IMG/VR virus record: IMGVR_UViG_3300035698_014689 | Location: 1 to 64,000 of that record | DNA from: a virus | DNA length: 64,000 bases | Direction: 5' to 3' (one strand) | Position numbers and translations under genes: made by a program | Notes under the pieces: generated by a model | The model's input: the letters and a program-made list of their open reading frames with translations, nothing else | What the model was told of the DNA's origin: nothing | The model's database searches: none | Part shown: positions 16,214-43,372 of the stretch, one piece after another | How the letters are laid out: each line of letters starts with the position of its first letter | How positions within the stretch are numbered: position 1 is the stretch's first letter

Positions 16214-17614
16214 CTAAGTGGGCGTGTTATTCAGCCTGACGAATCCATAAGAAGACTCCAACGTGGCACTTGCTGAATTATATGACATACCGATGGAATA
16301 CAGCAGACACTTATATGACAGGGACTCGACTAACAGTGGAACTTGTACGACTGTATTCAACTCCATCAAATCAGGAATAAAAGGGCCTTTGGCTGACAAA
16401 GTACGACCCGACAGCAGAGCATCAAATAACGCCCTCTCACCGATCTCAGTTGCCTTAGCCGTGTCCTGAATATAAACGTTGTCAATAGTCATATAACGAA
16501 AGCCCGAAAGAGCCAGTTGAGCCGAGTCAGTAACGAGAACCTCAATCCTGTGCTCCGTCTGCTCGTCATCATGTTTCGCTATCTGCTCATCCCTTCTCCG
16601 TCCCATCATAGGGCCGTCGATACTCGCTTTCTTATCCATCGTCTTATTCGTTCCCTCTCCCAGTCCCGCAACACTGGAAGGGGCTCCAGCAGTAGTTCCA
16701 ACCTCGGGACGAGCTTCGATAGTGAAGACGACATTATTCATTGACGTGGAGCTGAACGTTCCAGTGAGCGCAACGTTGATCTGATTTCCCACAACACTCT
16801 CGACGACCCCCGAGTCCGCATCCCCCGAAATGATCGTCACCAGTGCGTTCATTGCCTGCTCTCGTGTGAAATTCCCCACCCCAGTGACAGCGACAACTGC
16901 GGTCGTGGTACTCGTAGATGAAAATTCCGTGGATTGACCATCGACTAAAGTTGACTTTCCTATATCTGAGCCAACAACATATCTTCCTCTCACCCTACAG
17001 AGGCTCGCCGTATAATTCTCAGAATCGGACAGACTCACCGGAGCCTGCAAGTCACCCTCGTCCAAAGTATACTCGACAGCGGAAGCATCATCCTTCTTCA
17101 AAGCCGTCACCAATTGACCCTGTCTGTTGATAAACATTTCAACATTACAAGCGTCCGCTATCTTCCTCACAGCGGTCAACAAAGAGTTCTCTGATATGTT
17201 GATGTCGCTAAAGGTCTCGGAATTATCGACAGAAACATCGAAATAAGCTGGGAGGACTCCTCCATAGGTTCCAAGTATGTATGCGAGTAAAGCGGAGCCA
17301 GTCATCGACTCAATCGTCTCCGACGTGATGGGACGGTGTCCCAGCAATTCAGGAATTGTGTTGACACCAATACTCACCGCCGAACTTCCCAGCAAATCAA
17401 AGGGAGGGGAAACGGAAACAACCCTTCCCAGAAAAGCCACGTATTCAGTGACTCCCCTTATAGCTGTCAGTGTCACCCGTTGACCGATGAGATTCTCAGT
17501 GTGTAAGGAATACTTGTTATCAGTATTATTAAGAATCACGGAAGCTGACGAACTGCTTTTTAAATCACGGCCCGTCCTCCAACTAATTATATCCTGCTTT
17601 ATTACACTAGCCAT
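16214..17614 (-). CDS. tail tip/baseplate hub-like structural protein
   Basis: AVRKIADACNVEMFINRQGQLV and IDNVYIQD...A..IG motifs; last gene of tail module. Confidence 0.65.
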   Translation of the reverse strand: MASVIKQDIISWRTGRDLKSSSSASVILNNTDNKYSLHTENLIGQRVTLTAIRGVTEYVAFLGRVVSVSPPFDLLGSSAVSIGVNTIPELLGHRPITSETIESMTGSALLAYILGTYGGVLPAYFDVSVDNSETFSDINISENSLLTAVRKIADACNVEMFINRQGQLVTALKKDDASAVEYTLDEGDLQAPVSLSDSENYTASLCRVRGRYVVGSDIGKSTLVDGQSTEFSSTSTTTAVVAVTGVGNFTREQAMNALVTIISGDADSGVVESVVGNQINVALTGTFSSTSMNNVVFTIEARPEVGTTAGAPSSVAGLGEGTNKTMDKKASIDGPMMGRRRDEQIAKHDDEQTEHRIEVLVTDSAQLALSGFRYMTIDNVYIQDTAKATEIGERALFDALLSGRTLSAKGPFIPDLMELNTVVQVPLLVESLSYKCLLYSIGMSYNSASATLESSYGFVRLNNTPT

Positions 17615-20600
17615 CTAACAAATCTCCTAATTTCATAACTTTTCTATTCACAAAAACGACCTCTTCCATTGAGAAAATACCTGACCCTCTCAACCTCTCA
17701 GGAGCTTTTCTCACAGCAACGAGAAACTTCTCATACAAAGGCGTTGCCACTCTGCGTAAAGTGCAACCTACACACCTTTTTCCAATAGCCTGAAAACCCT
17801 CCACCTTCTTCCTCACGTCATCAAAAGCGGGAAGCAGTTCGGGATAAACTCCCAAAACGGCGGTCTGCTTTTCCCAAAGCATGACACCATCCAGAGGCTT
17901 TTTTTCAACAGTCCGAATACGATGAGCTCTGTCAACAGGAGGGATAGGCGTAGGAGCGGGAGAGGGAAAGTGAGTTGGATCGTACGAACCACCCTTAAAC
18001 GGATCAACATTCACAGGCAGGCCAACCAACGCTGGTCGCACCACACCTCGTTTTTCCCCAGCAGTTTTACTCGGAGCATTCTTCTTGATTACGGATGCTT
18101 GAACGGAAGCGTTCACCCTCTTAGCTTGACGCTTCTTTTTCAATGCTAGATACATACCATCGGTACGCTCTTTCTCACTTAAATAAGTTTTCTTCTCAAC
18201 ATAGGTTACTGCTTCCTGCAAATCAACATAATCAAAAGCAGTCAAACCGCTACTCTCAACACAATTAAAAACTTGAACATTGTAAAAATCCAACTGCTCT
18301 TTAACAAGACTGAAAAATGTGTTGAGCATTCGATACGTTCTATTATTCGAACGACAACCTCCAGCGGATTTCCCCTGATCAAAAGCGTAAGGCTGTTCAT
18401 GTTCCATCTTGAAATCAGCACCAACAAGGAAAATCTTACGAAATCCTAGAACAACGAGCAACTTCATAGCAACCATCATAACACTACGAAGATTCGAGTA
18501 TGATTCTTTCCTATCCTCATCATTGATCTTAGTTGAACCAGTCAAACCCCACGAAAATTTATCATCGTCCAGCCACTGATCAACAACTGATGTTTTATTA
18601 CGATAATACTCAAGGACATTCGGACAATTCTTAGGTCGTATATTCGCTTCCTCATCCTTAATGGAATCCCATAAAGCTTGTTTGCTATGACCTCTTGATA
18701 TAAATTTCGTGATAGTCGGGTCTTTCCAAATACTCAGACAAAATCTGCTCGGTTCATCCACACATGTCCACAGGTCTGGACGAACCACCGAAGGACTGTT
18801 ATTCACTCCCATTTTCATGACTTTAGACTTATTCAAAAGGGAAGCTCTATCCTCCGTGGTACTTGGGCCGCTCAATATGAGGAAACACGAGGCATCCTTA
18901 TAAGAATCAACAAAGTCAATTGGAGTGGTAACACCCTCCCTGATGAAAACTGGATGTGAAGAGTCCTTTTTCCTGAGTGATTTGAAGGGCATATCCTCCA
19001 CTTCGAATTTCGAGAATAATTCCTGATAAAGAACCACATCCTCACCTATCCATGAACGTAATACACTCCAGTCAGGAGTATCAAAAGGCCAACCCTTTCT
19101 CGGATTGTGACCGATAGTATGTCCTTTTCGACAATCAGGCAGATTCTTAATTCCAACCGTGTACTTGACTTTGGAGGAAAACATCTTTTTCCTACCCTCA
19201 AAAGCATTCCAAAGAAGACGATCAACATACATGGACTTCTTCCCACAAACTCTCAACAAATCAGAAATAACAGACCGTCTAAAACCAGTCTGACACCATG
19301 CGGCATTGCTCTTGCTTCCTACCACCTTATACTGAGGAACGTCCCCCTTAAAAGAATAATAAGGAACGGTCTTCTGTCCATACAAATCAAACTCGTTCAA
19401 ACCCTCTGCAACCGTCTGAAGGTATTCAGGGTGATACCAGTCATCATCCTCGACAATAATCACTTTCTCGCCCGTCACATGCTTCAGAGCCTCCATCATA
19501 TTAACAGGCAGAGTATGTTTTGGATCATCCTCCCTAGGCTCCCTCCTAATATACTGAATGTTCATGCCCTGAACCAACTCCTCGGGGAGAGGTGTTTTAC
19601 CATCATCTACAACGATCCATTGAATGAAAGATTGCGTCTGTCTACTCATCCAAGTTCTACACAAAGTGAATGCTGATAATCTATCACCAGTGGGCGTGAT
19701 AATTGTGATACTCTCTTTCACCTTCGTTATATCGTCCACTCGAACCACTGAAAAGGCATCTCCGCCCTTCCCAGCTAAAAGGGGTTTTTCAGGGAAGCTC
19801 CAAGCATTGAAATAATTGATAAGCTGTTCTGTCTTCCCCTTGATGTTTCTAAGAGAGGGAGCATTCAATATCTTAGACGAAATATCATCGCGAACATAAC
19901 TCAAGTGGTGCATCTCTAACTCATCTCTTTGAAATTCCCTGACTTCTCCCTCGACTGACAAACCTCTTGAAGGATCGATATGAAAACTTGACTGATACTT
20001 GACATCAAAAGAAACACCACTACGAATTTTTTGAATAAAAGGAACATAGTATTCTTGCTTGGGCTCCAGTCGATAATAAGGTTTTTTCCAATAAGTGACC
20101 ATCCTACAAACAGACGTGTCAAAACCCTCTTTCTGCATCAAGCTCTTCGCTGAAGCAAATTGAATCGGCTCATAAAGCTCATCGGCTCCCATAAGCATGA
20201 AGTGAGTCATACCGAGTTTTCTCAATCTCTCCAGTCCTATATTCGCCTTAGTTATCTCCTGCCTTTTAGCACAGGCTTTCGTTGGAGTGTACTTGAGCAT
20301 TGAATCTATTCGACCCTCTTTTTTCAGGCCCCTCAATAAAGGCAGAAGCCTCTCAGTGCAGGGATTTCCCACAAAAGACTTCTCCTGATAAAGAACAAGT
20401 ATATGATCAGCGTTCTCCCTTACGGAAGTGATCGAAAGAGGTAGATTTTCCTCCCCATTGAAAACGGTGTAGATTATTCCCAACCTCATCTTTTTCCCCT
20501 CATAAAAAGAGGTGTGAAGCCAGTCCTCACCTATGTCAAAAAAAGACCTCATCTCATCCGAGACAGCATTATCAATCATGCCTATTTTCTTTTGCTCTTC

Positions 20601-21266
20601 ACGAATGATTTTACTTATCCCCTCAACAGTGAAATCGTGGGGAATTGAGGCTGGAGTATCTGTATTGCAGACAGTCTTAATTCCCATCAAACCCATCTCT
20701 ATGACACTGTTCGGCAAACCATCTTTTTTAGTCAAACGTAAACCCAAAAAGCATTGCTTATAAAGAGAGTGCATCTCCTTCCAGTCAAAACTCTGCAAAG
20801 AAGAGCAGAGAAACTCTATGTCGGGGTGCTTCGCCATCACAGCTTCACACAAATCAAAACCAAAACTCTTTTTTCTTCTTTCAGACCCGTAATAAATATA
20901 TATCTTATTCCCTTTTTTGACTGGAACAAATGGATCATGTAAAGTGTGAGTGACATGCAATAAAATACTTTCGCTGGTAAACATCTCAAGGCGAGCTTTC
21001 ATCTGATTAGAGATAGCAATATGAAATATGTTTTCTCTTTGAAAAAGACTGGGGTGTTTCTGCGCAACTGCGAGGTCGGAACCCATCCAAACAATCACAA
21101 CGAGTCCTTTATGATCCAACACAAAAGAAACGTCACTACTGTCATAAACTCCGAAACAGACGACAGGGTTGGAACTAGACGTGCAATCTGAAAAGCCAAA
21201 TTTTTTCCTCAGATGTGGCTCAAAGAATCGAACGGAATCACTCACATGAAATTGCGTTATTTTCAT
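17607..21266 (-). CDS. four-domain glycosyltransferase (GT-B-like + GT2-like + GT2 + Maf/DUF115-like) with C-terminal CxxC domain
   Basis: DGLPNSVIEMGLMG; IIYTVFNGEE..ADELY; ITIITPTGDR..WIVVDDG..VEDDDWY; LILSGPS..GVNN..PDLWTCVD..LGFRKIFLVGADF. Confidence 0.85.
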   Translation of the reverse strand: MKITQFHVSDSVRFFEPHLRKKFGFSDCTSSSNPVVCFGVYDSSDVSFVLDHKGLVVIVWMGSDLAVAQKHPSLFQRENIFHIAISNQMKARLEMFTSESILLHVTHTLHDPFVPVKKGNKIYIYYGSERRKKSFGFDLCEAVMAKHPDIEFLCSSLQSFDWKEMHSLYKQCFLGLRLTKKDGLPNSVIEMGLMGIKTVCNTDTPASIPHDFTVEGISKIIREEQKKIGMIDNAVSDEMRSFFDIGEDWLHTSFYEGKKMRLGIIYTVFNGEENLPLSITSVRENADHILVLYQEKSFVGNPCTERLLPLLRGLKKEGRIDSMLKYTPTKACAKRQEITKANIGLERLRKLGMTHFMLMGADELYEPIQFASAKSLMQKEGFDTSVCRMVTYWKKPYYRLEPKQEYYVPFIQKIRSGVSFDVKYQSSFHIDPSRGLSVEGEVREFQRDELEMHHLSYVRDDISSKILNAPSLRNIKGKTEQLINYFNAWSFPEKPLLAGKGGDAFSVVRVDDITKVKESITIITPTGDRLSAFTLCRTWMSRQTQSFIQWIVVDDGKTPLPEELVQGMNIQYIRREPREDDPKHTLPVNMMEALKHVTGEKVIIVEDDDWYHPEYLQTVAEGLNEFDLYGQKTVPYYSFKGDVPQYKVVGSKSNAAWCQTGFRRSVISDLLRVCGKKSMYVDRLLWNAFEGRKKMFSSKVKYTVGIKNLPDCRKGHTIGHNPRKGWPFDTPDWSVLRSWIGEDVVLYQELFSKFEVEDMPFKSLRKKDSSHPVFIREGVTTPIDFVDSYKDASCFLILSGPSTTEDRASLLNKSKVMKMGVNNSPSVVRPDLWTCVDEPSRFCLSIWKDPTITKFISRGHSKQALWDSIKDEEANIRPKNCPNVLEYYRNKTSVVDQWLDDDKFSWGLTGSTKINDEDRKESYSNLRSVMMVAMKLLVVLGFRKIFLVGADFKMEHEQPYAFDQGKSAGGCRSNNRTYRMLNTFFSLVKEQLDFYNVQVFNCVESSGLTAFDYVDLQEAVTYVEKKTYLSEKERTDGMYLALKKKRQAKRVNASVQASVIKKNAPSKTAGEKRGVVRPALVGLPVNVDPFKGGSYDPTHFPSPAPTPIPPVDRAHRIRTVEKKPLDGVMLWEKQTAVLGVYPELLPAFDDVRKKVEGFQAIGKRCVGCTLRRVATPLYEKFLVAVRKAPERLRGSGIFSMEEVVFVNRKVMKLGDLLDG

Positions 21267-21275: not shown

Positions 21276-21893
21276 TTACTTTAATACTTTCGCACAATGC
21301 TCTTTCGGCAACATCAAATGCGGAAAGAAAGGTGCAACCAATTGCATCGCATCCTCATCTGCTTTCTCCAATCCACCTTTCTCTCCATTCGTGGTCATAT
21401 CAAGCCATGATTGAATGAAAACAGACTCCTTCTTAAAACCTATGATCCGTGGATCAATAGGAACCTTGAAATTATTCACAACTGAATTGACTGAAGGAAA
21501 AATGCTTGCCCATTTTAAAAGCCTTTTATACTTCACGTGATCAGTCAGTAATATATGCTCAGTATTCATAAAAAGCAAACCGGAATCATCAAGCTGTTTC
21601 CAAATAGTGCTAGGGAAACTTTTGAAAATCGTGCCGTTCCGCACAAAAAGAGTCAACTCAAAAGGAGTGTATCTCAAACCTCTGACCAACAGAATCCTCG
21701 GAGAAATACCTGCCGCTTTAATTACCTGACAATCAAGATCGAATCTTTTCTTCAGATCAGCTACGACGAGAAGGTCAATGCCATCCATATACACCTTCAC
21801 TGGTCCATCATAAAATAGCCTCAAAGATTTCAGTGTGTCTTCAAATTCACTCGCTTCGTCAGCCATCACGAACATCAAAATTCCCTTACTCAT
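21276..21893 (-). CDS. GT-A fold (GT8/nucleotide-diphospho-sugar transferase-like) protein, DxD apparently degenerate
   Basis: LKSLR...YTPFELTLFVRNG...FIQSW...DEDAMQL pattern. Confidence 0.55.
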   Translation of the reverse strand: MSKGILMFVMADEASEFEDTLKSLRLFYDGPVKVYMDGIDLLVVADLKKRFDLDCQVIKAAGISPRILLVRGLRYTPFELTLFVRNGTIFKSFPSTIWKQLDDSGLLFMNTEHILLTDHVKYKRLLKWASIFPSVNSVVNNFKVPIDPRIIGFKKESVFIQSWLDMTTNGEKGGLEKADEDAMQLVAPFFPHLMLPKEHCAKVLK

Positions 21894-21907
21894 TCTGTAC
21901 TCCTTTA

Positions 21908-23809
21908 TTAAGTGTAAATCGGCGGATAAGTTCCAGCACAAGCGTCCTTCGGAGACGATACCGTCCAGTCGGAGGTGATCGGCCCCTGTCTACGAACCTT
22001 CAGCACTGATCTTGGATCACCTGTGGCAGGGCTTGAATAATTCTCGATCACAGGACAGACATCATCTCTAAAAACAATAGTCGGCCCTACGACTATACAG
22101 TCATCATGACCCATGATCGTCCCAGTTGCATTCAGTCCACTATAATAATAATAAGACCAATAATAATAACCTCTAACCCACGGCCCGTCAATAGGCTCCA
22201 AACCACGCGGCTCAGGAACAGATGAAAGACATAAACAAGTCGATAAATCGGGCAGAGCATCCACCGCCTCGGAACTTGATCCGTCAGGGGGACAGACATA
22301 ATCCTCGGGACTCCAATCATCATAAGAAGACTCTGAACTGTTGACTGGTATTTCTCCTGACAACTCCTGTGTTCCCTCCCCATTATTATATATGCCAAGA
22401 ACATCTTTAAATGGTAATCTCTTTCCAATAAATCGAACATCATCAAGCTCAATCAAAACAGTGCTATTTGCGGAAAAAATGGCGGATGTTCTCAAGGGCT
22501 CCTGAGTTAAGTCCGTGGGCCAGTCATAAGTCTGATAAAGCTGGGTTATATACTGGCCTAACCACATATCACTAAACGTCCAAAATTCGTCCATGAAATA
22601 AACATCATTAGTCTGCGTGTAACTAGACCAAGGAGTGAGCTTCCTCGCATCGAGATAAACCTCCAAACCATCTTCCTCGGAAACATTCGCCACTACATTA
22701 TAGAATGTGTCGGGATCATAGTCCTGAGGCGTTGACATAAATACCGCTCTTGATCGCATAGAGGGGGAGTAACTAACATTCACAGCCAACTGTCCACCAG
22801 TGATCACGAGCGAGATTTGAAACTGACTTCTGTGATCATGTCGATAGTAATCCGTCCAACGACAATCCATAGCACAGATATACTGAGCATAAGGACGAGT
22901 CTCGCCACTGGGAAAGTCGGGAATCATCGCCCAAGCTGAGACGGAAAAAGCTTTCCCCATTGTCTCATTGAACCGCTGACGCAACTGGACTGCTGGACTT
23001 GCTTGAGAACCTGACAAACGGATAGCACCTGCGATTTTACCCTCAACACCCTCAACATTACCAGTTACAACCGTACCATCTATCCCAAGGTCATTCCCTA
23101 TGACTTCACTGCCTGCAACAGCTGATTCTGAAGGCTGTGAAACACTGCTGTCGAAGTCATCCATTCTATAATGAGCCACAATATCGTCAGCAACAGTCCA
23201 CAACGTGTCCTTAACACACAAATCACCCCACCAGTGCCAAGTGCAAACACCCTCGTCACAATCCTCGTAAATCCACTTATTCGCATCATCCTCATTCTGC
23301 TTCTTTTCACATGTATAAATCAAACTTTCAGCTGTGTAACTCCAAACATCAAAAACAGAATCGTATGTCACATCAGTGTAACACCTAAGCTCCTCCTCAA
23401 ACTCCTGTGATGAGAATGAAGAAACAGGATCATCAGATTCATCTACACTGATTGAATCACCACTACTCAATTCGGGCCAGTCACAAATTCCACATTCAGA
23501 ATAATCTGGCCACGATGAGGGTCGCGCCTCTCCTATGCAATCAGGATAAACGAAAGTCTCACCACTCACCCATGTCCATTGACACGTTCCCGCCTCTACA
23601 TCCAAAGCCGAGAGAGTCCATGTATCTATTCTTGATTCTCGGTCACTTTTCGTACAACCAGCGGCTGTCTTCACAGCAGTCTTAACCTCATCACTCTCAG
23701 AGCAATAAAGTGTTACATGCCATACTGGATGACTCAACGTCGCATCCGCTAAAGTGCAGTCACCTATCGGAGGCATCGTATCAGGTTGGTCGTTACATTC
23801 ATAAGCCAT
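21908..23809 (-). CDS. Cys/Trp-rich modular virion protein with LamG/concanavalin-like domain
   Basis: N-terminal modules shared with the next two genes; VAHYRMD, GKIAGA, FSVSAW, LEVYLD, LDDVRF LamG motifs. Confidence 0.7.
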   Translation of the reverse strand: MAYECNDQPDTMPPIGDCTLADATLSHPVWHVTLYCSESDEVKTAVKTAAGCTKSDRESRIDTWTLSALDVEAGTCQWTWVSGETFVYPDCIGEARPSSWPDYSECGICDWPELSSGDSISVDESDDPVSSFSSQEFEEELRCYTDVTYDSVFDVWSYTAESLIYTCEKKQNEDDANKWIYEDCDEGVCTWHWWGDLCVKDTLWTVADDIVAHYRMDDFDSSVSQPSESAVAGSEVIGNDLGIDGTVVTGNVEGVEGKIAGAIRLSGSQASPAVQLRQRFNETMGKAFSVSAWAMIPDFPSGETRPYAQYICAMDCRWTDYYRHDHRSQFQISLVITGGQLAVNVSYSPSMRSRAVFMSTPQDYDPDTFYNVVANVSEEDGLEVYLDARKLTPWSSYTQTNDVYFMDEFWTFSDMWLGQYITQLYQTYDWPTDLTQEPLRTSAIFSANSTVLIELDDVRFIGKRLPFKDVLGIYNNGEGTQELSGEIPVNSSESSYDDWSPEDYVCPPDGSSSEAVDALPDLSTCLCLSSVPEPRGLEPIDGPWVRGYYYWSYYYYSGLNATGTIMGHDDCIVVGPTIVFRDDVCPVIENYSSPATGDPRSVLKVRRQGPITSDWTVSSPKDACAGTYPPIYT

Positions 23810-23820
23810 TTTATTTTCCT

Positions 23821-24738
23821 TTATTCACAACAACACATCGCCACATAATAACCGCCATCATATATCACATAATGCGACTGAGAACAGGCCCCTGTATAAC
23901 CATACCAAGGGGGAAATACAGTAGCGCAATAATTATCACAATCAGCGGCTCCAGCGGCATCCGCTTCAGCATAAGTATCATAACCAGCATAAAGTTCGGG
24001 AGAACAACCAGCTGTGCAAGCAGTGGGAGGCTCCGGTTCTGAACTCGGTGGCGGATCAGAACTCGGTGGTGGATCAGAACTCGGTGGTGGATCAGAACTT
24101 GGTGGTGGTGGTGCTGAACCACTTGAATCATCTGAATCAGAAGGTTCTATACACTCGTCGCCCCACCAGTGCCAATTACATACTCCGCCCGTCTCACCAT
24201 CATAAATCCACTCATGCAGAGGTTCATTGAGATACCCTCCCGACTTATTCACACACGTCATCGTCAGGTTAGCCGGATTATCTTTCTTCCATTGATTGAA
24301 AGTCGCATCAAACCACTGCTCCGTATAACAACGCATATCCTCATACGCGTCCGTCTCCTCCTCTCCCGACGAATAGTCATCACTGCCGTCCGACAACAGA
24401 ATTGAATCACTTGAGTCAACGCAAGTGCATTGCGAATAATCGGGCGTTGACGTCGGACTATCGTTTCCAAGGCATTCAGGCCATTGATACTCCTGCGAGC
24501 AGACCCATCTCCACACACACGTCGTATCATCGTCTAGGATCAACTCCCACACGTCGTAATCGTAATTCGAGTAAGTTGTACAAGTGGAACTCGTTTTGAC
24601 CGCCACATCCGCTCCACAGAGCAATGTCACCTTCCAAACAGGATGACGCATCGTCGGATCAGCGGACGGACAAACCCCTGTGTCGGGATATGCCGAAGGT
24701 GTCTCCGCATTACAAACTTTTCCTGTACAATCAGCCAT
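23821..24738 (-). CDS. Cys/Trp-rich modular protein with Pro/Ser repeat
   Basis: HPVWKVTLLC; CYTEQWFD; WIYDG..GVCNWHWWGDEC; PPPSSD repeats. Confidence 0.7.
   Translation of the reverse strand: MADCTGKVCNAETPSAYPDTGVCPSADPTMRHPVWKVTLLCGADVAVKTSSTCTTYSNYDYDVWELILDDDTTCVWRWVCSQEYQWPECLGNDSPTSTPDYSQCTCVDSSDSILLSDGSDDYSSGEEETDAYEDMRCYTEQWFDATFNQWKKDNPANLTMTCVNKSGGYLNEPLHEWIYDGETGGVCNWHWWGDECIEPSDSDDSSGSAPPPPSSDPPPSSDPPPSSDPPPSSEPEPPTACTAGCSPELYAGYDTYAEADAAGAADCDNYCATVFPPWYGYTGACSQSHYVIYDGGYYVAMCCCE
24041..24112. repeat. 18-bp tandem repeat x4 encoding PPPSSD
   Basis: GAACTCGGTGG(C/T)GGATCA units, last one degenerate. Confidence 0.9.
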
Positions 24739-24756
24739 CTTCTTTTCCCCTTTTTC

Positions 24757-25605
24757 CTAGAACATACAATCGTCGTCTTGACAGAGAGTATGCGTCGCAT
24801 AAGGACCACTAATAATCTCTCTGACAGTGTGGATCATACACAACCCTGTGCCGGGGTTAAACATTGAGCAGAAGCAAGGGTCTTCGCCTTCAGTGAAATA
24901 AATGCAGAACGTATCCAAACCAACCAGATCGCCAGCAGTAGGATCGGTGTAGCCTGGAACATAACTCCAAACCTTGCAACAGTACCAGCCAGCTTCAAGG
25001 GGCTCGGAACTACTTACGTCTACACATTCATCACTCCACCTATGCCAGTAACAAATCCCGCTAGAACTATTATCTCCATCATAAATCCAAACATTCAAAG
25101 CCTCAGCTTTCGTCCTCACTCTACATGACCAAGTCAACTTATCCAAACTAGACTTACTCCATTGATCAAATATCGCATCATAATTAAGAGTCGTATAACA
25201 ATTACATTCTTGTTCCTCAGAGGGAATATCAGAAGGGGGCGGTTCAGGAGAATCGGACGGAGGCACAGATATCGATGTCTCACAATCACAATCAATAGGG
25301 AATTCGGGAGGTGTCTTCAAACCACCTCCCCCTTCACAGTCCTCCCCAGCTTGACAACCAAGAGAACCATCCCCGCAGGTTATCAACTCATATAAACATA
25401 AAACACTCGTCTGTGATTTCAAATACCAAGGGACTTCAGTACAAGCGGAAACACATTGAGAACTTACGGCTGAAACCGTTCCCCATGTGCCAGCAACGCA
25501 ATCATACGTAACCTGATAAGTCCACATGCAGTAACGCACCTCGGACTCACTTGTTCCGCCACTCGACTCACAACAGTCACACTGATTTTTAATTTGTAAT
25601 GCCAT
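24757..25605 (-). CDS. Cys/Trp-rich modular protein
   Basis: CYTTLNYDAIFDQW; WIYDGD..GICYWHRWSDEC shared with the two downstream paralogs. Confidence 0.7.
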   Translation of the reverse strand: MALQIKNQCDCCESSGGTSESEVRYCMWTYQVTYDCVAGTWGTVSAVSSQCVSACTEVPWYLKSQTSVLCLYELITCGDGSLGCQAGEDCEGGGGLKTPPEFPIDCDCETSISVPPSDSPEPPPSDIPSEEQECNCYTTLNYDAIFDQWSKSSLDKLTWSCRVRTKAEALNVWIYDGDNSSSGICYWHRWSDECVDVSSSEPLEAGWYCCKVWSYVPGYTDPTAGDLVGLDTFCIYFTEGEDPCFCSMFNPGTGLCMIHTVREIISGPYATHTLCQDDDCMF

Positions 25606-25612: not shown

Positions 25613-26623
25613 CTATCCTACAAAAGCGATACCATTTCTAAACTTAAGCGTCAACGCCTCTATTAAATAACAGCCATCAACCTCCCCAGTGATAACGGCA
25701 AAATCCCACGTGCCAGTCAATCTATCACCAACCTGTTGATCAGAGCCTCCCGAACCCCCTCCCGAACCCCCTCCTGAACCTCCTGAACCACCCGAATCCT
25801 CATCCAGTCCATCAACTGTGACATCAATCGTGGTAACGCACTCTACGCCCACGTCTATTTCGTGAACATATTCAATCGTATATGTGCCTTTTTCAGTGTC
25901 GGGGCCTATGGAATAAGACGTGCCAAGTTGATTCGTCGTGGAGTCTAACGAGAACGGCCCTGCGGGATTTCCCGAGGCCATCCTCCAAAAAACCGTATTC
26001 ACTGGTGAGCATTCAGTATCATAAGAAGGGGCGGCGATCAACGAACCCCCTACATCAGTGTCCCTATTCACGGACTGCGCTCCTGACAAAGCGACTATCA
26101 CTGAAACACAAGAAGTGCAGGCAGGTGAGGGGCCTCCACTCTGATCCGTATAAGAAAAACTTGTTTCCTGAAAACTACTCCCACTTGGCTCATCACTAGA
26201 CTCCTCAGTCTCAGGCAAACCAACACCACCCGAAGGAATATACAACTTGAACGTCCATGCTTCGGAAGCTTCAGATGCGCATCCGTCATCACTATAAGCG
26301 ATCACCCGCCAATAATGGGCTGTATCAAGAAAAAGATCTTCCCCATATTCAAAAGTTTTCGCTAAAGTCTCAGAGGATAAAATCTTATAACCCTTGGTCT
26401 GCGTTCCTCTGAAATCCGAAGACAGTCCAAATTGCAAAACATAAAAATCCGCATCAACTACAGCTTGCCATTTTACAGTAACATCATTTCCTGAATAAGC
26501 TACGACAGTCTCAGCTTGATCCAACGGAGACAAAAGAAGTGGCGTTGCGAGAATGCAGTTACTAAATAACGTCTCATCCTCAATTAAAACAATCGTATCA
26601 TTTATCAGCAATTCAGTGCTCAT
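25613..26623 (-). CDS. minor tail protein with FN3/Ig-like domains and Gly-Ser linker
   Basis: P.LLSP...VKWQAV..Y.LQ...HYWRVIA FN3-like pattern; GGSGG repeats at 25746-25797. Confidence 0.65.
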   Translation of the reverse strand: MSTELLINDTIVLIEDETLFSNCILATPLLLSPLDQAETVVAYSGNDVTVKWQAVVDADFYVLQFGLSSDFRGTQTKGYKILSSETLAKTFEYGEDLFLDTAHYWRVIAYSDDGCASEASEAWTFKLYIPSGGVGLPETEESSDEPSGSSFQETSFSYTDQSGGPSPACTSCVSVIVALSGAQSVNRDTDVGGSLIAAPSYDTECSPVNTVFWRMASGNPAGPFSLDSTTNQLGTSYSIGPDTEKGTYTIEYVHEIDVGVECVTTIDVTVDGLDEDSGGSGGSGGGSGGGSGGSDQQVGDRLTGTWDFAVITGEVDGCYLIEALTLKFRNGIAFVG

Positions 26624-26994
26624 ACAGCCGTACCCCAGCTAGACGTTGAAATTATCTGAAAAGAACCCGACACATCGAAAAGACCAGCGGCATACGCCTT
26701 CGGAGAGTCAAAGATCAAGAATTTTACCGTGTGTGCGTCTCCCCAGTAGCCTGTGAACGATAAGTCGGGACTAAGGGGATCATTGAACAGTGTCAGGAGT
26801 TCAACGTATTCAGCCCTCGTAGCGGCTTGAATATCCCACCCTATCGAAGAGTCACCCGCCACAATCGTGGGAGCAGTGTGTATTCTGATCCCTCCAGCAG
26901 TCTGAACAACCTTCTTTCTTTTGGAAGGAACAGCGGGCTTATAAGAAAACTGACAGGGCAGTGTCACCGAACCAATATGCGCTTGTAACATCAA
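26620..26994 (-). CDS. distal tail (Dit-like) protein
   Basis: Size and position immediately after the tape measure gene. Confidence 0.55.
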   Translation of the reverse strand: MMLQAHIGSVTLPCQFSYKPAVPSKRKKVVQTAGGIRIHTAPTIVAGDSSIGWDIQAATRAEYVELLTLFNDPLSPDLSFTGYWGDAHTVKFLIFDSPKAYAAGLFDVSGSFQIISTSSWGTAV

Positions 26995-35565: not shown

Positions 35566-35566
35566 A

Positions 35567-38517: not shown

Positions 38518-38518
38518 C

Positions 38519-38944: not shown

Positions 38945-38946
38945 GA

Positions 38947-39330
38947 TTAAAATCCTCCATAAAGATTTCTTGCTGTTAATAAATTGGCGGCCATTCCCCC
39001 ACCACCACTCGATGTGGCTACCTCGTCGATAGCCGCTTGAACCTCATCGGCAGTTAATCCCGAAGTCGAATTATCATAACTTATAGCAGTGGCTGGATGA
39101 CTATCTGAGTTCGTACGTCCAGTCAAACTATTATGATCAGGAGTCTCACTCCCACCACTTACTTCTCCCCACGCGCCATTCCCCCACGCATACAAAGAGG
39201 GCGCTCCAGCGATATTCGCCACGAAAGCGAAATCTCCATCTGTCCCCACAGAAACCAAAGTAGTCAACTCCAGCAAAGTCGGGAAAGATCCACGATAAAA
39301 TTTGAATTGAAAACCTTTTTCTGTTATCAC
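38947..39330 (-). CDS. putative fibre/structural protein
   Basis: HNSLTGR..DSHPATAI and YDN..SGLTA..VQAAIDE phage fibre motifs. Confidence 0.65.
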   Translation of the reverse strand: MITEKGFQFKFYRGSFPTLLELTTLVSVGTDGDFAFVANIAGAPSLYAWGNGAWGEVSGGSETPDHNSLTGRTNSDSHPATAISYDNSTSGLTADEVQAAIDEVATSSGGGGMAANLLTARNLYGGF

Positions 39331-39334
39331 AAGA

Positions 39335-39631
39335 CTACCTCTTATTTATAGAGAAAAATAAACTTACTTCTCTCGAACCCGACACCGAACGCAACATAAG
39401 AAGATTCGAAGCGGTATGAACGTCAAAATCAATCCCCAGTTCCAAACCACCACCAAGATTAACCCAGTCATCACTAGCATTAGCACCACGCATCTCAACA
39501 CTTGAAATAACCTGAGGCATGATCATAACAGCTAGAACATCCTCACCGTGTAAAATCTTCGTGACATCCAGCACTACGGGAGTCGTGGTAACTGTCTGTA
39601 CTATCGTCCTCATTCCATTTGCTTGCAACAT
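39335..39631 (-). CDS. putative structural protein
   Basis: Beta-rich ORF with AGGAG RBS in the structural operon. Confidence 0.55.
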   Translation of the reverse strand: MLQANGMRTIVQTVTTTPVVLDVTKILHGEDVLAVMIMPQVISSVEMRGANASDDWVNLGGGLELGIDFDVHTASNLLMLRSVSGSREVSLFFSINKR

Positions 39632-39648
39632 GACATTCTCCTATATAA

Positions 39649-40371
39649 TTAAACAGCCATAAATAAATCCGCGTAATTGACAAAACCCGAAAGGATGCGG
39701 TCAACTTCAACAAAGCCCGTGATCGTGACAACTCCATCATCTCTGCTCACGACACCAGAACCACCCTCTCCCCCAGCACTATAAGAAACTTGATAATCCG
39801 TCCACAATTCCTGAGTCTTATTCCCCTCTACCATATCTGAAAAGGACTTCTCTCCGATACCCGCTTTATCAGGGCCGAGAGAAAGGCAGATAGTCAAAAG
39901 AATCGTGGCTTTTTTGATCAGATCAGGGACGGTCGCTTCGCCGAACGTTCCAACTACTTTAATGTTTCGACGGCCTCTAGGCCAAACGCCTGCGCCTGAA
40001 CGTGAACGTATGTTATACGTGCCCGTGTTGATCAAAATAGAATGAACCTCGGAAACGTAATCAGTGGGTTGCAGATAAGTGTGCTCAACGGAGCCATCGA
40101 AATCAATCTCTTGAACGGAGACAAGGGAAACTATTCTGTAAGGATAACCACCATCTTGGGCGAGGAAAAGACTCTCCCCTCCATTTCCATTGACGATGAC
40201 GGTATCTTCTTTCGGATAAAAAATGTCATTACAGCCACTCTCGATCTTAACCTCAGACTCGTCAATCAAGGCTTGCAGTTGCACATCCGACCAACCAGTG
40301 AAATCGAGAACAGTGGAGCTCTCTGTAGGGCGATAATCCTTCACCTCTTGGACTGTGGCATAGTTACTCAT
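39649..40371 (-). CDS. head-tail connector (gp6/gp15-like adaptor)
   Basis: YATVQEVKDY, WPRGRRNIKV, VPDLIKKATILL motifs. Confidence 0.8.
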   Translation of the reverse strand: MSNYATVQEVKDYRPTESSTVLDFTGWSDVQLQALIDESEVKIESGCNDIFYPKEDTVIVNGNGGESLFLAQDGGYPYRIVSLVSVQEIDFDGSVEHTYLQPTDYVSEVHSILINTGTYNIRSRSGAGVWPRGRRNIKVVGTFGEATVPDLIKKATILLTICLSLGPDKAGIGEKSFSDMVEGNKTQELWTDYQVSYSAGGEGGSGVVSRDDGVVTITGFVEVDRILSGFVNYADLFMAV

Positions 40372-40408: not shown

Positions 40409-43372
40409 TCATCCCGTCAATGTCCTGAATGCTTTCAATACCGTATCCGTACTTAGTTTCTCCATGCACTCTACTTTACAGTCGCTCTTAACCAAGTCCT
40501 TTTTGACTGATCCCCAGCAGTGGCAATCGTGCTCTGACTCAACGTTCACCAGCGTGTCATAAGAGGACAACCACGCCTTACTGCTTCCCCCGAATAGTGC
40601 CACTGTGGGCTTATCCAAAGCGAAAGCCAGATGAATCGCTAAAGTGTCAACGCTAACAACATACTGCATAGACTCGATATTTTCAACCAATTCTTTGAAG
40701 TTTTTTGATCTTTTATCCTTCAGACCCCGTATCAAAGGCGTTTTGGCTAATCCTAATTGATGACAGGTGAACCCGTCCGCTTTCAGTCTCCTCGCTAATT
40801 CCAGCCATTTGGACTTGGGCCACTCTTTTATTCGTCGATCAGCATCTTGGTTCATTTGCATGAAGAAGCCAACGCTTTTCTCCAAAGGCGTGGCGGAAAT
40901 ACGTTTTGGCAGATCAGAGATTGAACCACCCATTCCATTGACTATATGAACCTTCTGCTCCCAGCAACCGTTGTAATCCACTGGAATCTCCAAAGAGTCC
41001 TGAAGCGGATCAACGGACACCGATACATTATCCAAGAACATCTTGACGATCTCAAAACAGCCTTCACGTGTTTGATAATTTATCTTGGCTAAAGGGAAAA
41101 ATTCCTGTGTCTTTTTAACGAGGGCGAAGGACATATAAATATCTCCAGCTCCATACTCACGATGGAAGTTCACCCGCCCTTTTCGATAAGCCTCGGGATA
41201 AGAATCACCAAGTGTTTTCCGTATCAATTGGCGATACTTCGGAATGACAGAATCAATCGTACATTCCGCCATAACTTTTCTTTGCAGTTTGATGCCGTCA
41301 GTCTTCCTTATACGTGTGATTTCACTCCGTAAGGAGTCCAAGACAGGCATCCCAGCTTGCGACTCCACAAACCTCATTTCCTTCTCGAAAAAGATGGGAA
41401 GCGCACCAACTTTTGTGGCGATGACAGGAACGCCAAAATATCCAGCCTCAAGACAGACCATAGGAAAGCCCTCTTCCCTTGACAAAACAACGAGTGCGTC
41501 AATGCTTTTAAAGAACGTTCCAATATTGCGGCTTCTCGGCAGAAATTTAACTCTATCCGCATAACCTCCATCCTTGGCTATATTCTCAAGTAAAGTCAGG
41601 GAAATTTCATCGGTCTCCATTCCCTGCACGACAAGATTGCAATCAAGTGCACTCATGTTCTCTACAAGCCAACGGACGTTTTTATTGTAATCAAATCGTC
41701 CTAAGAAGCCTATCGTCGTGCCTTTCTCAAACATCTTTTTACTCTCGCCTGAAAAGGCCGTTACTGGCAGAGGATTCGGAATAAAGATAGACTCGGGAAT
41801 CTTCTCACTTATAACAGGGGACACACAGGTCGTGGAGTCGATAACGTCTCTCCACTTCTCAGTGAATTTCACGCCCTCCTCGTCATAGTGAGTATGAACT
41901 ACCCTGATTGATAAGGGTCTGAGATTTCTCATTGTCTTCAATGAGATGGGAATCGCTTCATTCATACCATACCACAGAACAGCATCCTGCTTCTCGAACT
42001 CATCAGTTGCCAGTTCAGAGCCACCTTTGAAGATAACGTTGTCAAAACGACTCAGGAGCTCCTCCTTGATTGACATCTGTTTTCTTGGTTCGATCGAATC
42101 AAAGGCGATCACGGTAACATCAAAGAACTTCTTCAGGCCCTCGGCGATCGTCATCATGCAGGTCTCCCCTCCACCTAGAACCATATGAGGGAAAACGACA
42201 GCTATCTTCTGAACCCGCTTAATAAAATTCAAATCTCTTTGGCGACTACTCTTCAAAGGCTGGCCCTTACGATCTTGGAACCACTGAGACTCGTGCTCAA
42301 TAGGCCCGACCGTTCCCTTAATGGCTTGAACCACATCCTGAGGACTTATCGACAGCATACAGGAGTAACCGTTATTGCAATCGGAAGGCCTCCTCCTTCG
42401 ACAACCCACACAATCAAAGCTGGACTTCAGCGGATGAACAGTAGCGTACCTTCCAGCAACAGCATGAGGACTTGAAGGGCCAAACAAAGCAATCGTCTCC
42501 AGTCCGATCATTCCAGCAAGATGCAGAAAACAGCTATCAACGCAGACGAAATAATTGCAGACAAACATTAAACGAACCTGCTCAAGAACGCTGAAACCAG
42601 TGCAGTCCACAACACCCTCTAATCCGAGACTATCCTGACCGAAAACAAGCACTTCGAAATCACTCCTCTTAACAATCTCTATGAACGCCCTCCAATTTTC
42701 CGCTGACCAGTCTCTGTGCAAAGCGGAGGATTTCGGATGTATTCCAATCACTTTTCTCTTTCCAAAATTGTGAGCTATCTCCAGCGTCTTGTCCAATGTT
42801 CTAGGCATGTTTATAGGAACCTTGGCGACTGGACAGTTATCAAGCCCTACCATCTGATACGCTCGTTCGTAATAATCGTGACCTGTGATTGTTTTATCCG
42901 TCTCAATCATAAAATCGGACAAGTCCAAAATCATATCAAACTGATCTTGGAAACGCACGTCGTTAGTTCGCTGTATGTCAACGAATTCATCGACAAAGGG
43001 GAATAATGGGGTGAAGGGTATAAAACTCTCACAAACGGCTAATACGACTCTGCATTCGACCTTTTTCAGGTATCGTACAACAGAGGTCACAATCAGAGTG
43101 TCTCCAATCCCACCAGCATTCTTAACGAGGATCGTCATCTTATGCCAATTTTTTGGTAAGGTTCTAAACACGTCCATAGGAGGCTTCGAGAATCCCTCAA
43201 GAAGTGTTTCCCCTTCAGAGGCTGGCTCGATAACTTCAATGAATTTACCTGTGAGTAAAAGCTTTCTTCCCTCGGGGGAACTGACCTCAGTGGGCTCCGC
43301 ATCGTCCAAACTGAGAACCTGCTTGGTGAAAGGCGTAGTATATCCTGATGCTCCAACTAGACGAATTAACAT
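40409..43372 (-). CDS. triple-domain glycosyltransferase GT9-GT4-GT9
   Basis: GGIGD..VDSCFLHLAG..ALFGPS (GT9); GGGE..FLGRFDYNKN..EGFPMVCLEA..PVIATKVG (GT4); GAGD..KEWP..VDTLAIHLA..ALFGGS (GT9). Confidence 0.9.
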   Translation of the reverse strand: MLIRLVGASGYTTPFTKQVLSLDDAEPTEVSSPEGRKLLLTGKFIEVIEPASEGETLLEGFSKPPMDVFRTLPKNWHKMTILVKNAGGIGDTLIVTSVVRYLKKVECRVVLAVCESFIPFTPLFPFVDEFVDIQRTNDVRFQDQFDMILDLSDFMIETDKTITGHDYYERAYQMVGLDNCPVAKVPINMPRTLDKTLEIAHNFGKRKVIGIHPKSSALHRDWSAENWRAFIEIVKRSDFEVLVFGQDSLGLEGVVDCTGFSVLEQVRLMFVCNYFVCVDSCFLHLAGMIGLETIALFGPSSPHAVAGRYATVHPLKSSFDCVGCRRRRPSDCNNGYSCMLSISPQDVVQAIKGTVGPIEHESQWFQDRKGQPLKSSRQRDLNFIKRVQKIAVVFPHMVLGGGETCMMTIAEGLKKFFDVTVIAFDSIEPRKQMSIKEELLSRFDNVIFKGGSELATDEFEKQDAVLWYGMNEAIPISLKTMRNLRPLSIRVVHTHYDEEGVKFTEKWRDVIDSTTCVSPVISEKIPESIFIPNPLPVTAFSGESKKMFEKGTTIGFLGRFDYNKNVRWLVENMSALDCNLVVQGMETDEISLTLLENIAKDGGYADRVKFLPRSRNIGTFFKSIDALVVLSREEGFPMVCLEAGYFGVPVIATKVGALPIFFEKEMRFVESQAGMPVLDSLRSEITRIRKTDGIKLQRKVMAECTIDSVIPKYRQLIRKTLGDSYPEAYRKGRVNFHREYGAGDIYMSFALVKKTQEFFPLAKINYQTREGCFEIVKMFLDNVSVSVDPLQDSLEIPVDYNGCWEQKVHIVNGMGGSISDLPKRISATPLEKSVGFFMQMNQDADRRIKEWPKSKWLELARRLKADGFTCHQLGLAKTPLIRGLKDKRSKNFKELVENIESMQYVVSVDTLAIHLAFALDKPTVALFGGSSKAWLSSYDTLVNVESEHDCHCWGSVKKDLVKSDCKVECMEKLSTDTVLKAFRTLTG

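Follow-up and report, generated by a model that had tools for sequence, protein, structure and literature searches.

Mycobacteriophage virions are reportedly O-glycosylated. In the mycobacteriophages Che8, Corndog and Myrna, capsid and tail(-tube) subunits carry glycans for which phage-encoded glycosyltransferases (GTs) have been proposed or shown, and the enzymes are soluble and cytoplasmic (Freeman et al. 2023, Cell Host Microbe 31:1216, as cited in PMC12619734 and PMC11256854). The chlorovirus PBCV-1, a eukaryotic giant virus, encodes multi-domain capsid glycosyltransferases (A111/114R and A064R), with three transferase activities in one polypeptide, that build the N-linked glycan of its major capsid protein independently of host ER/Golgi-type machinery (PMC7826918, PMC9614988). 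TibC and Aah (BAHT; PDB 4RAP, 4RB4), GT-B enzymes of the heptosyltransferase family with GT9-like sequence, O-heptosylate Ser in the cytoplasm with ADP-heptose (PMC4358343), and the Maf enzymes, which transfer nonulosonic acids to flagellin, attach O-glycans to Ser/Thr of this self-assembling structural protein while it is still unassembled in the cytoplasm (PMC11339370). The sugars that phages place on 5hmC DNA are also diverse and include heptose and Kdo (bioRxiv 10.1101/2023.12.21.572611).

Here, we analysed a window of 64,000 nucleotides from a 94.9 kb virus record (completeness ~79%) of an uncultured, tailed phage in which every gene is on the minus strand. Our best reading, with a probability of roughly 0.6, is that virion proteins of this phage are glycosylated in the host cytoplasm, with targets and sugars that we infer. 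As in the mycobacteriophages, the proposed enzymes are phage-encoded, soluble and cytoplasmic, whereas this phage differs in its GT9 and Maf-like enzymes, its three- and four-domain fusions, its conserved head and tail slots and probably its host type; among control genomes, GT9 was confined to Gram-negative-type organisms. Multi-domain fusion and, as proposed here for the phage, virus-encoded glycosylation independent of host machinery are common to PBCV-1 and this phage; the transferase families are different.

Results

A GT9-GT4-GT9 fusion follows the major capsid gene

The head island contained the following features (window positions).

43501..44496, minus strand: major capsid protein, HK97-type, 331 aa (PF05065 27.5 bits; phrog_1623 E 1e-64)
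43449..43476, minus strand: terminator-like hairpin between the capsid and GT genes
40409-43372, minus strand: GT9-GT4-GT9 fusion, 987 aa, after the major capsid gene and hairpin
43202..43372, minus strand: N-terminal extension of the 987-aa protein, ~57 aa
42278..43201, minus strand: GT9 domain 1, about residues 58-365 (PF01075 best stretch 195-322)
41273..42220, minus strand: GT4 (Glycos_transf_1) domain, about residues 385-700 (PF00534 67.1 bits; PF13692 64 bits)
40412..41233, minus strand: GT9 domain 2, about residues 714-987 (second PF01075 stretch)
39649..40371, minus strand: head-tail adaptor homolog, downstream boundary of the island (phrog_442 E 1e-12)

A sequence-only reading had placed a 987-aa GT9-GT4-GT9 fusion right after the capsid gene, and Pfam and gene order bore this out. 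The protein matched Glyco_transf_9 in two stretches (88.5 bits; Pfam cut-off 22) and Glycos_transf_1 over residues 547-659 (67.1 bits; cut-off 26.4), and alignment to P0001, a 660-aa GT9-GT9 protein whose second GT9 domain is 31% identical to GT9 domain 2, set the GT9 domains at about residues 58-350 and 714-985, with the GT4 inserted between them; the match to PDB WlaC (6eji) spanned residues 388-652. In the alignment, the ~57-aa extension was conserved only in three-domain orthologs (L011, L009) and was absent from P0001 and single-domain GT9s. Catalytic signatures were present throughout, with GxGD and D(S/T)xxxH retained in both GT9 domains and E-x7-E (EGFPMVCLE) in GT4. GT9 domain 1 carried GGIGD (D91), HPKSSxxxRxW, DSCFLHLAG and a Cys cluster (CxxC...C...C), and domain 2 carried GAGD (D744), KEWP, VDTLAIHLA and a Cys cluster.

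The LPS core is the main acceptor of characterised GT9 enzymes. The LPS inner-core heptosyltransferases WaaC and WaaF (PDB 2GT1, 1PSW) have Pfam GT9 and the GxGD, K/RxW and DSGxxH motifs in common with the phage GT9, whereas the phage protein holds a GT4 between its two GT9 domains, is encoded in a head operon and has a presumed acceptor. The GT9 family profile matched TibC with E 5e-4, no better than the LPS enzymes (WaaF 1psw E 2e-8, WaaC 1.4e-3), and was nearer WaaF than TibC; as groups, the relatives that act on LPS and those that act on proteins were similarly close to GT9. A C-terminal Cys cluster is a further likeness of the window's GT9 domains to TibC/Aah and was not conserved in single-domain relatives; unlike TibC/Aah, the phage enzyme would modify a protein of the phage.

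The terminator noted before the GT gene was found as a strong hairpin with a 12-bp stem and T-run, and GT expression is thus probably below that of the capsid protein. The additional call of a candidate promoter for this gene was unsupported, since no minus-strand promoter-like site lay between the hairpin and the gene start. In an alignment of capsid proteins, a Ser/Thr-rich stretch at about residues 69-93 (TEGADTTTS..TT) was conserved and is among the possible acceptors.

The linkage of capsid and GT9 genes held across the lineage. One PF01075 gene over the cut-off, always between the capsid and adaptor genes, was present in 18 of 21 related virus records, GT9 was the gene immediately after the capsid gene in 18 of the 19 readable loci, and adaptor homologs were present in nearly all relatives. 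Within the same lineage the GT9 proteins were ~24–37% identical, compared to 55–66% for the capsid proteins (across 22 viral contigs), and such divergence in a fixed slot beside a conserved capsid gene points to long vertical linkage rather than recent insertion. The cassette 3' of GT9 varied (GT2 in L018, GT8 in L019, sulfotransferase-like in L009), which is the appearance expected of glycan diversification.

A four-transferase fusion adjoins the hub-like tail gene

The distal tail module and its transferases were arranged as follows.

26991..31121, minus strand: tape measure protein, start of the distal tail module (PF10145; phrog_28, phrog_58)
25613..26623, minus strand: Dit-position tail protein, 336 aa, conserved in relatives
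21908..25605, minus strand: three Cys/Trp-rich tail proteins (282, 305 and 633 aa) with Ser/Asp/Pro linkers (sequence and composition)
21276..21941, minus strand: GT-A-like protein, 205-221 aa (protein atlas model, lead only)
17607-21266, minus strand: four-transferase fusion, 1219 aa (GT-B, GT-A, GT2, Maf-like and helical domain)
20493..21266, minus strand: D1, residues 1-258, compact GT-B, GT4-like (AF2 pLDDT 90)
19719..20492, minus strand: D2, residues 259-516, GT-A fold, GT2-like (ThuS 7msk Z 14.9, 166 aligned)
18987..19718, minus strand: D3, residues 517-755, GT2 (PF00535 37.3 bits, cut-off 23.3)
18117..18959, minus strand: D4, Maf / CstII / MptE-like (DUF115-type) transferase domain
17610..17909, minus strand: D5, C-terminal helical domain, aligns with the Maf C-terminal domain
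16214..17614, minus strand: hub-like tail protein, 466 aa (atlas TM ~0.6 to Phage_GPD and gp44-like clusters)

The tail transferases (GT-A-like gene and 1219-aa fusion) lay between the Cys-rich tail proteins and the hub-like gene, and the GT-B/GT2/GT2/Maf-like architecture first proposed for the fusion was upheld as D1–D5 were identified by Pfam, Foldseek and VIA. The D1 model aligned with BshA (3mbo) over 248 residues (VIA Z 17.7, rmsd 3.0); its structural matches were BshA, PglA and PimA, and P0122 and P0151 are stand-alone homologs. D2, which also has stand-alone homologs (~260 aa), matched SpsA and SunS in Foldseek, and D3 retained DDG and EDDD motifs and was 35–42% identical to many GT2 proteins. 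For D4+D5 (residues 770-1219), the top structural match was the flagellin glycosyltransferase Maf (5mu5; Foldseek E 6.8e-4), followed by CstII, and in VIA its central and C-terminal domains were matched over both phage domains (Z 13.9, 270 aligned; model residues 13-435). D4 matched the CstII profile (E 5e-4), and 22 of 28 D4 homologs matched MptE-like PF01973 at E ≤ 0.01, with the window's own D4 at 19.9 bits, under the Pfam cut-off of 34.6. D5 was conserved in L027 (422 aa), L030 (423 aa), P0060, P0068 and P0117 and, judging from the model, may be an acceptor-binding domain. Compared to Maf systems, the N-terminal domain is missing, D4 is fused behind three other transferases and the flagellar context is absent.

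The earlier call of a GT-A-like gene beside the fusion agreed with the fold of its atlas model (TM 0.74–0.88 to GT8, Nucleotid_trans, GT2 and Mannosyl_trans3 clusters) and is treated as no more than a lead; homologous segments occurred in tail-module proteins L027 (871 aa) and L030 (506 aa). None of the transferases had transmembrane segments. Overall, the domain-by-domain assignment came out positive, and the predicted total of about eight transferase domains inside structural modules was matched by eight, verified by Pfam, predicted structures and structure comparison, that look intact and lie within the capsid and tail-tip operons.

The hub-like protein had a weak phrog_196/1887 match and homologs in 10 of 19 relatives, and the ATG of its gene overlapped the stop of the 1219-aa gene (ATGGCTAG). 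As anticipated from the window, Maf-like and GT2 modules adjoined the hub-like gene in three other phages (G008, G024 and L100), here as separate genes; most relatives were without a Maf-like tail island. In the closest relative, G008, the island comprised a GT-A-like segment, one GT2 (70.9 bits), another gene that is GT2-like, and a Maf-like gene for D4+D5 that overlapped the hub-like gene by the same 8 nt as in the window (ATGNCTAG). Gene order in the G024 tail island was as in G008, and the capsid gene of G024 adjoined an open frame of 1004 aa that matched GT9. The more distant L100 had D4-like and D3-like genes just upstream of a hub-like gene.

The Cys/Trp-rich tail proteins are, by sequence, candidate O-glycosylation acceptors. 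The 305-aa protein contained (PPPSSD)x4, with 84% S/T/P across 25 residues. Among phages with tail transferases, 4 of 5 (the window, G008, G024 and G006) had extreme S/T/P tracts, with a fraction of at least 0.72 in 25 residues, in adjacent tail proteins, compared to 0 of 5 that lack such transferases (G001, G003, G004, G005 and G012), a correlation from few, phylogenetically related genomes; G009 had a tail GT-A-like gene, yet was without such a tract. Homologs of the Dit-position protein came after the tape measure and a 124-aa gene in G001, G003, G005, G006, G008, G009 and G012.

Sugar-related genes outside the islands

7491..8126, minus strand: FkbM-family methyltransferase, outside the virion modules (PF05050 41.4 bits)
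55939..57096, minus strand: DegT-family sugar aminotransferase near the terminase (PF01041 206.9 bits)

The FkbM methyltransferase proved real, and any link to the glycan is hypothetical. The DegT aminotransferase, which could be a source of an amino-sugar donor, and a dehydratase fragment were the only donor-sugar genes; no nonulosonate or heptose-nucleotide pathway, including NeuB or CMP-sugar synthetase, was found in the ~79% complete genome. A transferase pair reported near the terminase (57256-58143 and 58567-60084) was not supported, with GT1 matches that were sub-threshold (E ~7e-4) and no solved-structure match.

Discussion

We propose two glycosylation islands whose enzymes would be made along with the phage's own virion proteins and would modify these in the host cytoplasm. 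Behind the capsid gene, read-through of the terminator would yield low levels of the soluble GT9-GT4-GT9 enzyme, which would start and lengthen a short glycan on a protein of the head (the capsid protein being the simplest candidate), drawing on host sugar nucleotides (ADP-heptose is the family-typical GT9 donor). In the tail, the GT-A-like protein and 1219-aa fusion would build an O-glycan either on the hub-like protein or on the linkers, rich in Ser/Thr/Pro, of the Cys-rich distal tail proteins, with Maf-like D4+D5 as the protein-recognising transferase, made beside its client via translational coupling to the hub-like gene. The original interpretation of virion glycosylation is partly supported: its domain calls and both synteny results hold, whereas virion proteins as acceptors, distinct head and tail glycans and 'LPS-core-like' or 'flagellin-like' chemistry are parts that we infer. 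Gene position is not in itself proof of an enzyme's target, and any glycan on virion proteins is a putative one.

It is unlikely that the enzymes instead modify other molecules (a phage or host protein from outside the virion, or an oligosaccharide, free or lipid-linked), or that some domains are inactive and have a structural or assembly role. Proteins with a GT fold can be co-opted for binding and GT9 diverges fast (down to ~24% identity), but the catalytic motifs are invariant across the GT9 family and several transferase activities stay together in fused and split forms, as would be expected of a working pathway more than of domains in decay.

Late remodelling of the host envelope (LPS core, O-antigen or other surface glycan), with virion-operon location serving late timing only, would mask receptors so that progeny escape loss on debris, or exclude other phages. 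The classical acceptors of GT9 (LPS inner-core intermediates), its best PDB match (WaaF), its restriction to Gram-negative-type control organisms and the typical role of GT2, GT4 and GT8 as surface-polysaccharide families all suit this explanation, which we nonetheless consider distinctly unlikely. Fresh LPS would have to be exported during the late period; the genome had no flippase-like, polymerase or other multi-pass membrane protein and no integrase or lysogeny module, and no prophage relatives were found among 185,579 species genomes with the patterns used. Across the lineage GT9 keeps its slot beside the capsid gene, the Maf-like and hub-like genes are translationally coupled, and Ser/Thr tracts in tail proteins accompany the tail transferases.

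Glycosylation of phage DNA (hypermodified bases) during packaging would explain closeness to head genes, and phage GT-A/GT-B enzymes do hypermodify 5hmC DNA (bioRxiv 10.1101/2023.12.21.572611) and a ParB/DegT/GT-like cluster lies by the terminase, but it is very improbable given that the genome had no ThyA-family (thymidylate-synthase-family) hydroxymethylase and no TET/JBP match (a search without positive control), that a hub-adjacent tail island has no logic for DNA, that the two-domain layout shared with Maf is typical of an enzyme that glycosylates proteins and that related head islands contain sulfotransferase-like genes.

The analysis establishes what the domains are, that their motifs are intact, where the genes lie and that these places are conserved. 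The acceptors and donors, the order in which the enzymes would act and the gain to the phage (shielding, stability or adsorption) are proposals, and shielding or mimicry as the benefit is speculation. Most likely, the enzyme types here have not yet been reported for phage particles, and the novelty is the tail island together with the multi-domain fusions. With eight intact-looking transferase domains in slots that are kept in relatives, this phage most likely sugar-coats its own particle.

Glycosyltransferase domains lie within the virion modules of the phage

Eight transferase domains were found inside the head and tail modules of the window, as the sequence-only reading had proposed, and were identified by Pfam matches and predicted structures. 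Long ORFs of the window lay nearly all on the minus strand, and the parent record was a single record of 94,886 bases, estimated by CheckV to be ~79% complete. Genes followed the order of a small terminase-like HTH protein and gpA-type large terminase; portal with intein, MuF with intein and a 658-aa protein; major capsid protein, 987-aa enzyme, adaptor and neck proteins; and Ig-like tail protein, chaperones, tape measure protein and distal tail genes. Regions of the window considered here were as follows.

55475-55831, 118-aa ORF
46921-52414, portal and MuF genes
43501-44496, major capsid gene
40409-43372, minus strand, 987-aa GT9-GT4-GT9 transferase (head island)
33925-39649, eight genes between adaptor and neck genes
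17607-21266, minus strand, 1219-aa transferase fusion (tail island, preceded by a 221-aa GT-A-like gene)
16214-17614, 466-aa hub-like gene
11105-14908, AAA+ ATPase and vWA protein genes
7491-8126, FkbM methyltransferase gene

The FkbM methyltransferase that had been named beside the transferases was real and situated outside the virion modules, while two supposed GT-B genes near the terminase received sub-threshold support only. A DegT aminotransferase was also real and outside these modules; the 118-aa ORF adjoining its intact gene matched GDP-mannose 4,6-dehydratase over its final 44 positions alone and is thus a gene remnant. The 928-aa portal protein and the 901-aa MuF protein carried one intein each, with a LAGLIDADG endonuclease signature in the former and a DUF559/Vsr-like signature in the latter. 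Just downstream of the tail module, a MoxR/CbbQ-type AAA+ ATPase (464 aa) was paired with a CobT-like vWA protein (786 aa).

No close relative was found in the cultured-phage collection, either by DNA or by the 987-aa protein. The nearest capsid proteins among cultured phages were those of Streptomyces BE-type phages (28% identity), and Streptomyces phage Enygma, the sole BE-type phage checked, had no annotated transferase after its capsid gene. Capsid-protein profiles were run twice against 185,579 species genomes and returned no relative, giving neither a host clue nor a prophage form; a tyrosine integrase was absent from the record. Viral-contig scans with the single 987-aa or 1219-aa protein likewise gave no match, and relatives came from alignment-based scans, in which 22 viral contigs with capsid identity of 55-66% were retrieved by capsid-protein profile. 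One relative had its capsid gene broken into 227- and 126-aa ORFs by a 255-aa ORF (locus L002, 9618-11483), which may reflect an intron or homing-endonuclease insertion. The large terminase of another relative, G001, comprised 1210 aa (locus L001, 245-3877), of which residues 9-176 and 812-1210 were homologous; the ~630 aa between them suggest a large intein or other insertion.

A GT9 gene follows the capsid gene in nearly all readable relatives

The fusion of GT9, GT4 and GT9 domains predicted behind the major capsid gene was confirmed by Pfam and by alignment to a shorter homolog. The GT9 family (PF01075) matched ORF 40409-43372 in two stretches with 88.5 bits (cut-off 22), and GT4 (Glycos_transf_1, PF00534) matched residues 547-659 with 67.1 bits (cut-off 26.4). 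A 660-aa metagenomic GT9-GT9 protein from a 118-kb contig (P0001) aligned to residues 58-427 and 714-985 and was without the middle stretch, indicating an architecture of GT9, inserted GT4 and GT9. Full-length orthologs of 973 and 1007 aa occurred in two related contigs, and in a third (G024) the capsid gene was followed by an open frame of 1004 aa that matched GT9.

Invariant columns of both GT9 domains included the GxGD Asp (D91 in the first, D744 in the second), a K/R-x-W segment and D(S/T)xxxH. D91, D744, DSCFLH and DTLAIH were invariant or conserved in two alignments and aligned to VGD and DSGLMH of WaaF; we take the GxGD Asp to be catalytic, at the position of WaaC Asp13, and the C-terminal D(S/T)GxxH to be the WaaC Asp261 region. 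The GT4 domain kept its E-x7-E motif (EGFPMVCLE). Cys clusters, compared here with the iron-finger Cys motif of the BAHT protein heptosyltransferases (TibC, Aah), were present in both GT9 domains of the window and unconserved in single-domain GT9 relatives. A profile of the capsid-linked GT9 family matched WaaF (E 2e-8), the protein heptosyltransferase TibC (5e-4) and WaaC (1.4e-3). From these sequence comparisons the 987-aa protein clearly belongs to GT9, at the level of family, and the profile points to no acceptor class.

A 12-bp terminator-like hairpin was located behind the capsid gene, as described previously. The separate promoter that had been suggested for the transferase gene was not recovered, as no promoter-like site was found ahead of it; together, these observations fit expression by read-through, at a level expected of an enzyme and not of a structural protein. 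The three-domain head enzymes, and only these, also had a conserved N-terminal extension of ~50-57 aa with the pattern LV..SGYTTPxTKxV...EV...E..LL.TG.F (window 43202-43372; loci L011, 9620-9790, and L009, 8314-8480, of relatives), which may be a targeting or head-binding module.

The expected synteny of capsid and GT9 genes was evident across the relatives, since, of 19 loci whose downstream DNA could be read, 18 had a gene homologous to the first GT9 domain immediately after the capsid gene. PF01075 scored above cut-off in 18 of 21 records, each time in one gene of the capsid-adaptor interval, including one locus (L006) with the gene ~5.5 kb downstream. Two of the three remaining records were contigs that stop just past the capsid gene, and the third (G001) encoded a divergent 315-aa protein that kept the DTxxxH segment. 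The GT9 proteins shared ~24% identity and were far more diverged than the capsid proteins. The interval between GT9 and adaptor genes varied among relatives, with extra genes that differed: a GT2 (47.5 bits), a GT8 (29.1 bits), a sulfotransferase-like gene and many unknowns. Sulfotransferase-like genes (PF00685, 22-23 bits, at cut-off) were seen in one head island (L009, 13547-14794) and one tail island (L027, 8314-9390), which hints at sulfated glycans. The eight window genes at 33925-39649 were missing in G001. The 834-aa product of one of them had a Gly-rich C-terminus and matched F5/8 type C (discoidin) weakly, and the set is a possible cassette for a carbohydrate-binding fibre of the head or neck.

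A multi-domain tail transferase gene overlaps a hub-like gene

An exhaustive HMMER search divided the 1219-aa protein into modules at residues 1-255 (D1), 260-516 (D2), 517-755 (D3) and 770-1050 (D4) and a C-terminal piece (D5), each of which had stand-alone homologs, and AlphaFold2 models built from such homologs were confident (pLDDT 90.2 and 86.6). The predicted structure of D1 was a compact GT-B fold (248 residues aligned with GT4 enzymes, Z 17.7), and that of D2 was GT-A, with ThuS at Z 14.9 and SpsA and SunS matched by Foldseek. Sequence profiles built for D1, for D2 and for the hub-like proteins found no match among solved structures, and D1 and D2 are classed here from their predicted folds. 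D3 matched GT2 (PF00535) with 37.3 bits (cut-off 23.3) and contained a DxD motif (VVDDG, EDDDW). By Pfam score and motif, the domains belong to the GT9, GT4 and GT2 families. The 221-aa gene upstream had a GT-A-like predicted structure, and the 466-aa gene downstream resembled baseplate-hub proteins.

For D4 and D5 together, the Maf structure 5mu5 was the top match in both Foldseek (E 6.8e-4) and VIA-align (Z 13.9, rmsd 9.0, 270 aligned; model 13-435 vs chain 254-631), and the alignment extended through the C-terminal helical domain. HPPK (Z 10.5), CstII (Z 10.2) and other sialyltransferases ranked lower, and the D4 family profile matched CstII at E 5e-4. PF01973 (MptE-like) matched 22 of 28 D4 homologs at E ≤ 0.01 (best 1.3e-7) but scored the window D4 at 19.9 bits, under the cut-off of 34.6, indicating membership at the superfamily level only. 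NeuB and CTP_transf_3 (nonulosonate pathway, CMP-transferase) were absent from the record. Among the matches obtained for the record, no heptose-nucleotide genes were noticed that would supply ADP-heptose, the donor typical of GT9. The earlier designation of a Maf-like part therefore stands as to fold, but since the Pfam cut-off was missed and the gene context was a tail module rather than a flagellar one, we describe the unit as Maf-like and not as Maf. In IMG/VR (loci L028-L107), the Maf/MptE-like D4 module was very common in viral contigs, with one peptide pattern leading to at least 181 confirmed stretches, many of them in contigs of 100-300 kb; the context search covered hub-like neighbours.

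Tail transferases were sought across the relatives with GT2, GT9, the D4 profile and the 1219-aa protein only. The proposed synteny of GT2 and Maf-like genes beside the tail tip was found in three other phages (G008, G024 and L100), all next to the hub-like gene, while most relatives were missing 1219-aa homologs. G008, which shares the three-domain head enzyme, encoded a GT-A-like segment (in an 871-aa protein), GT2 (70.9 bits), a GT2-like gene, a sulfotransferase-like gene and a 422-aa D4-D5 gene. The stop of this last gene lay within the second and third codons of the hub-like gene (ATGCCTAG). The stop of the 1219-aa gene and the hub-like start overlapped in the window (ATGGCTAG) exactly as in G008. 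G024 had the gene order of G008, with a gap of 1 nt (TAAGATG) in place of the overlap. In the more distant L100, the D4-like and D3-like modules were encoded by separate genes immediately upstream of a hub-like gene. These loci indicate that the window fusion corresponds to split genes elsewhere, at a conserved position; at head and tail loci alike, phage-encoded transferases were conserved together with virion genes.

Tail modules of G006 (L112, 4683-5795) and G009 (L110, 11232-12197) contained orthologous GnT-I-like GT-A candidates (37% identity) with an N-terminal RPxYL motif, a VVEDD motif and weak Pfam GT2 matches only. Comparison of the 370-aa G006 protein with the D2 family by hhalign was negative; its weak PF00535 matches and EDD motif point weakly to a putative GT-A.

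Candidate acceptors and probable target of the transferases

Tail proteins encoded beside the tail transferases had extreme Ser/Thr/Pro tracts in four phages.

Ser/Thr/Pro tracts of tail proteins
Window: (PPPSSD)x4, in the 305-aa tail protein
G008: SSLSS-type repeats
G024 (L030, 28-3541): at least 25 consecutive Ser, in three adjacent genes
G006 (L112, 5814-8120): ~15 Thr, in the Dit-position protein, directly before the weak GT-A-like gene

Five relatives with no detected tail transferases had no such tract, and G009 had the GT-A-like gene with the tract absent, in a comparison whose sample is small and not phylogenetically independent. A Ser/Thr-rich segment of the capsid protein was conserved across all members; it does not discriminate. 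Judged by composition and position, the tract-bearing tail proteins and this capsid segment are candidate acceptors.

We consider it probable, at roughly 60%, that the targets of the transferases are virion proteins. Remodelling of the host envelope would agree with the classical LPS role of the GT9 family, but the fixed position of the genes and the coupling to the hub-like gene argue against it, as do the record, in which no membrane, flippase or lysogeny genes were found, and the scanned species genomes, which held no prophage relatives. The acceptor could also be something other than virion proteins, envelope or DNA. Glycosylation of phage DNA is known for phage transferases, but no hydroxymethylase-family (ThyA-family) gene was found in the record, TET/JBP gave no match in a search without a positive control, and the tail island would be left unexplained.

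Virion-protein glycosylation could take a specific form, which as a whole we regard as unlikely, in which glycans would be built from LPS inner-core precursors of the host. The capsid-linked GT9 domains would attach heptose, and the Maf-type unit would place a Kdo-like or nonulosonic-type sugar on Ser/Thr-rich linkers of distal tail proteins, being delivered there via translational coupling with the hub-like gene. If true, the virus particle would be the first with heptosylated protein or with ulosonic-acid glycosylation, and phages of probably Gram-negative hosts would have a 'glycan coat' system that spans the lineage and diversifies within it.

Implications for virion glycosylation

To our knowledge, glycosylation of phage particles has been demonstrated only in some actinobacteriophages. 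GT9 enzymes are known from LPS-core modification and Maf-like enzymes from flagellin modification. The window system would work like mycobacteriophage virion glycosylation and the multi-domain capsid transferases of PBCV-1, and it may use a TibC-like and Maf-like logic of protein glycosylation. No description of GT9 genes fixed behind phage capsid genes was found in the papers searched. New features are the GT9-GT4-GT9 fusion, a further island at the tail tip that holds a four-transferase fusion and whose coupling to the hub-like gene is conserved, and the link between tail transferases and Ser/Thr-tract tail proteins.

Conserved gene pairs provide testable enzyme-substrate hypotheses (capsid and GT9; Ser/Thr-tract tail proteins and tail transferases; hub-like protein and Maf-like unit), and the fusions might serve as tools in protein glyco-engineering. 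If this lineage glycosylates head and tail, virion glycosylation would be more widespread and chemically more diverse than its demonstration in some actinobacteriophages suggests, and the GT9 and Maf-like families would serve it, from rapidly diversifying glycan islands inside structural operons. Such islands could influence adsorption and stability, as well as how hosts, grazers or immune systems recognise the phage.
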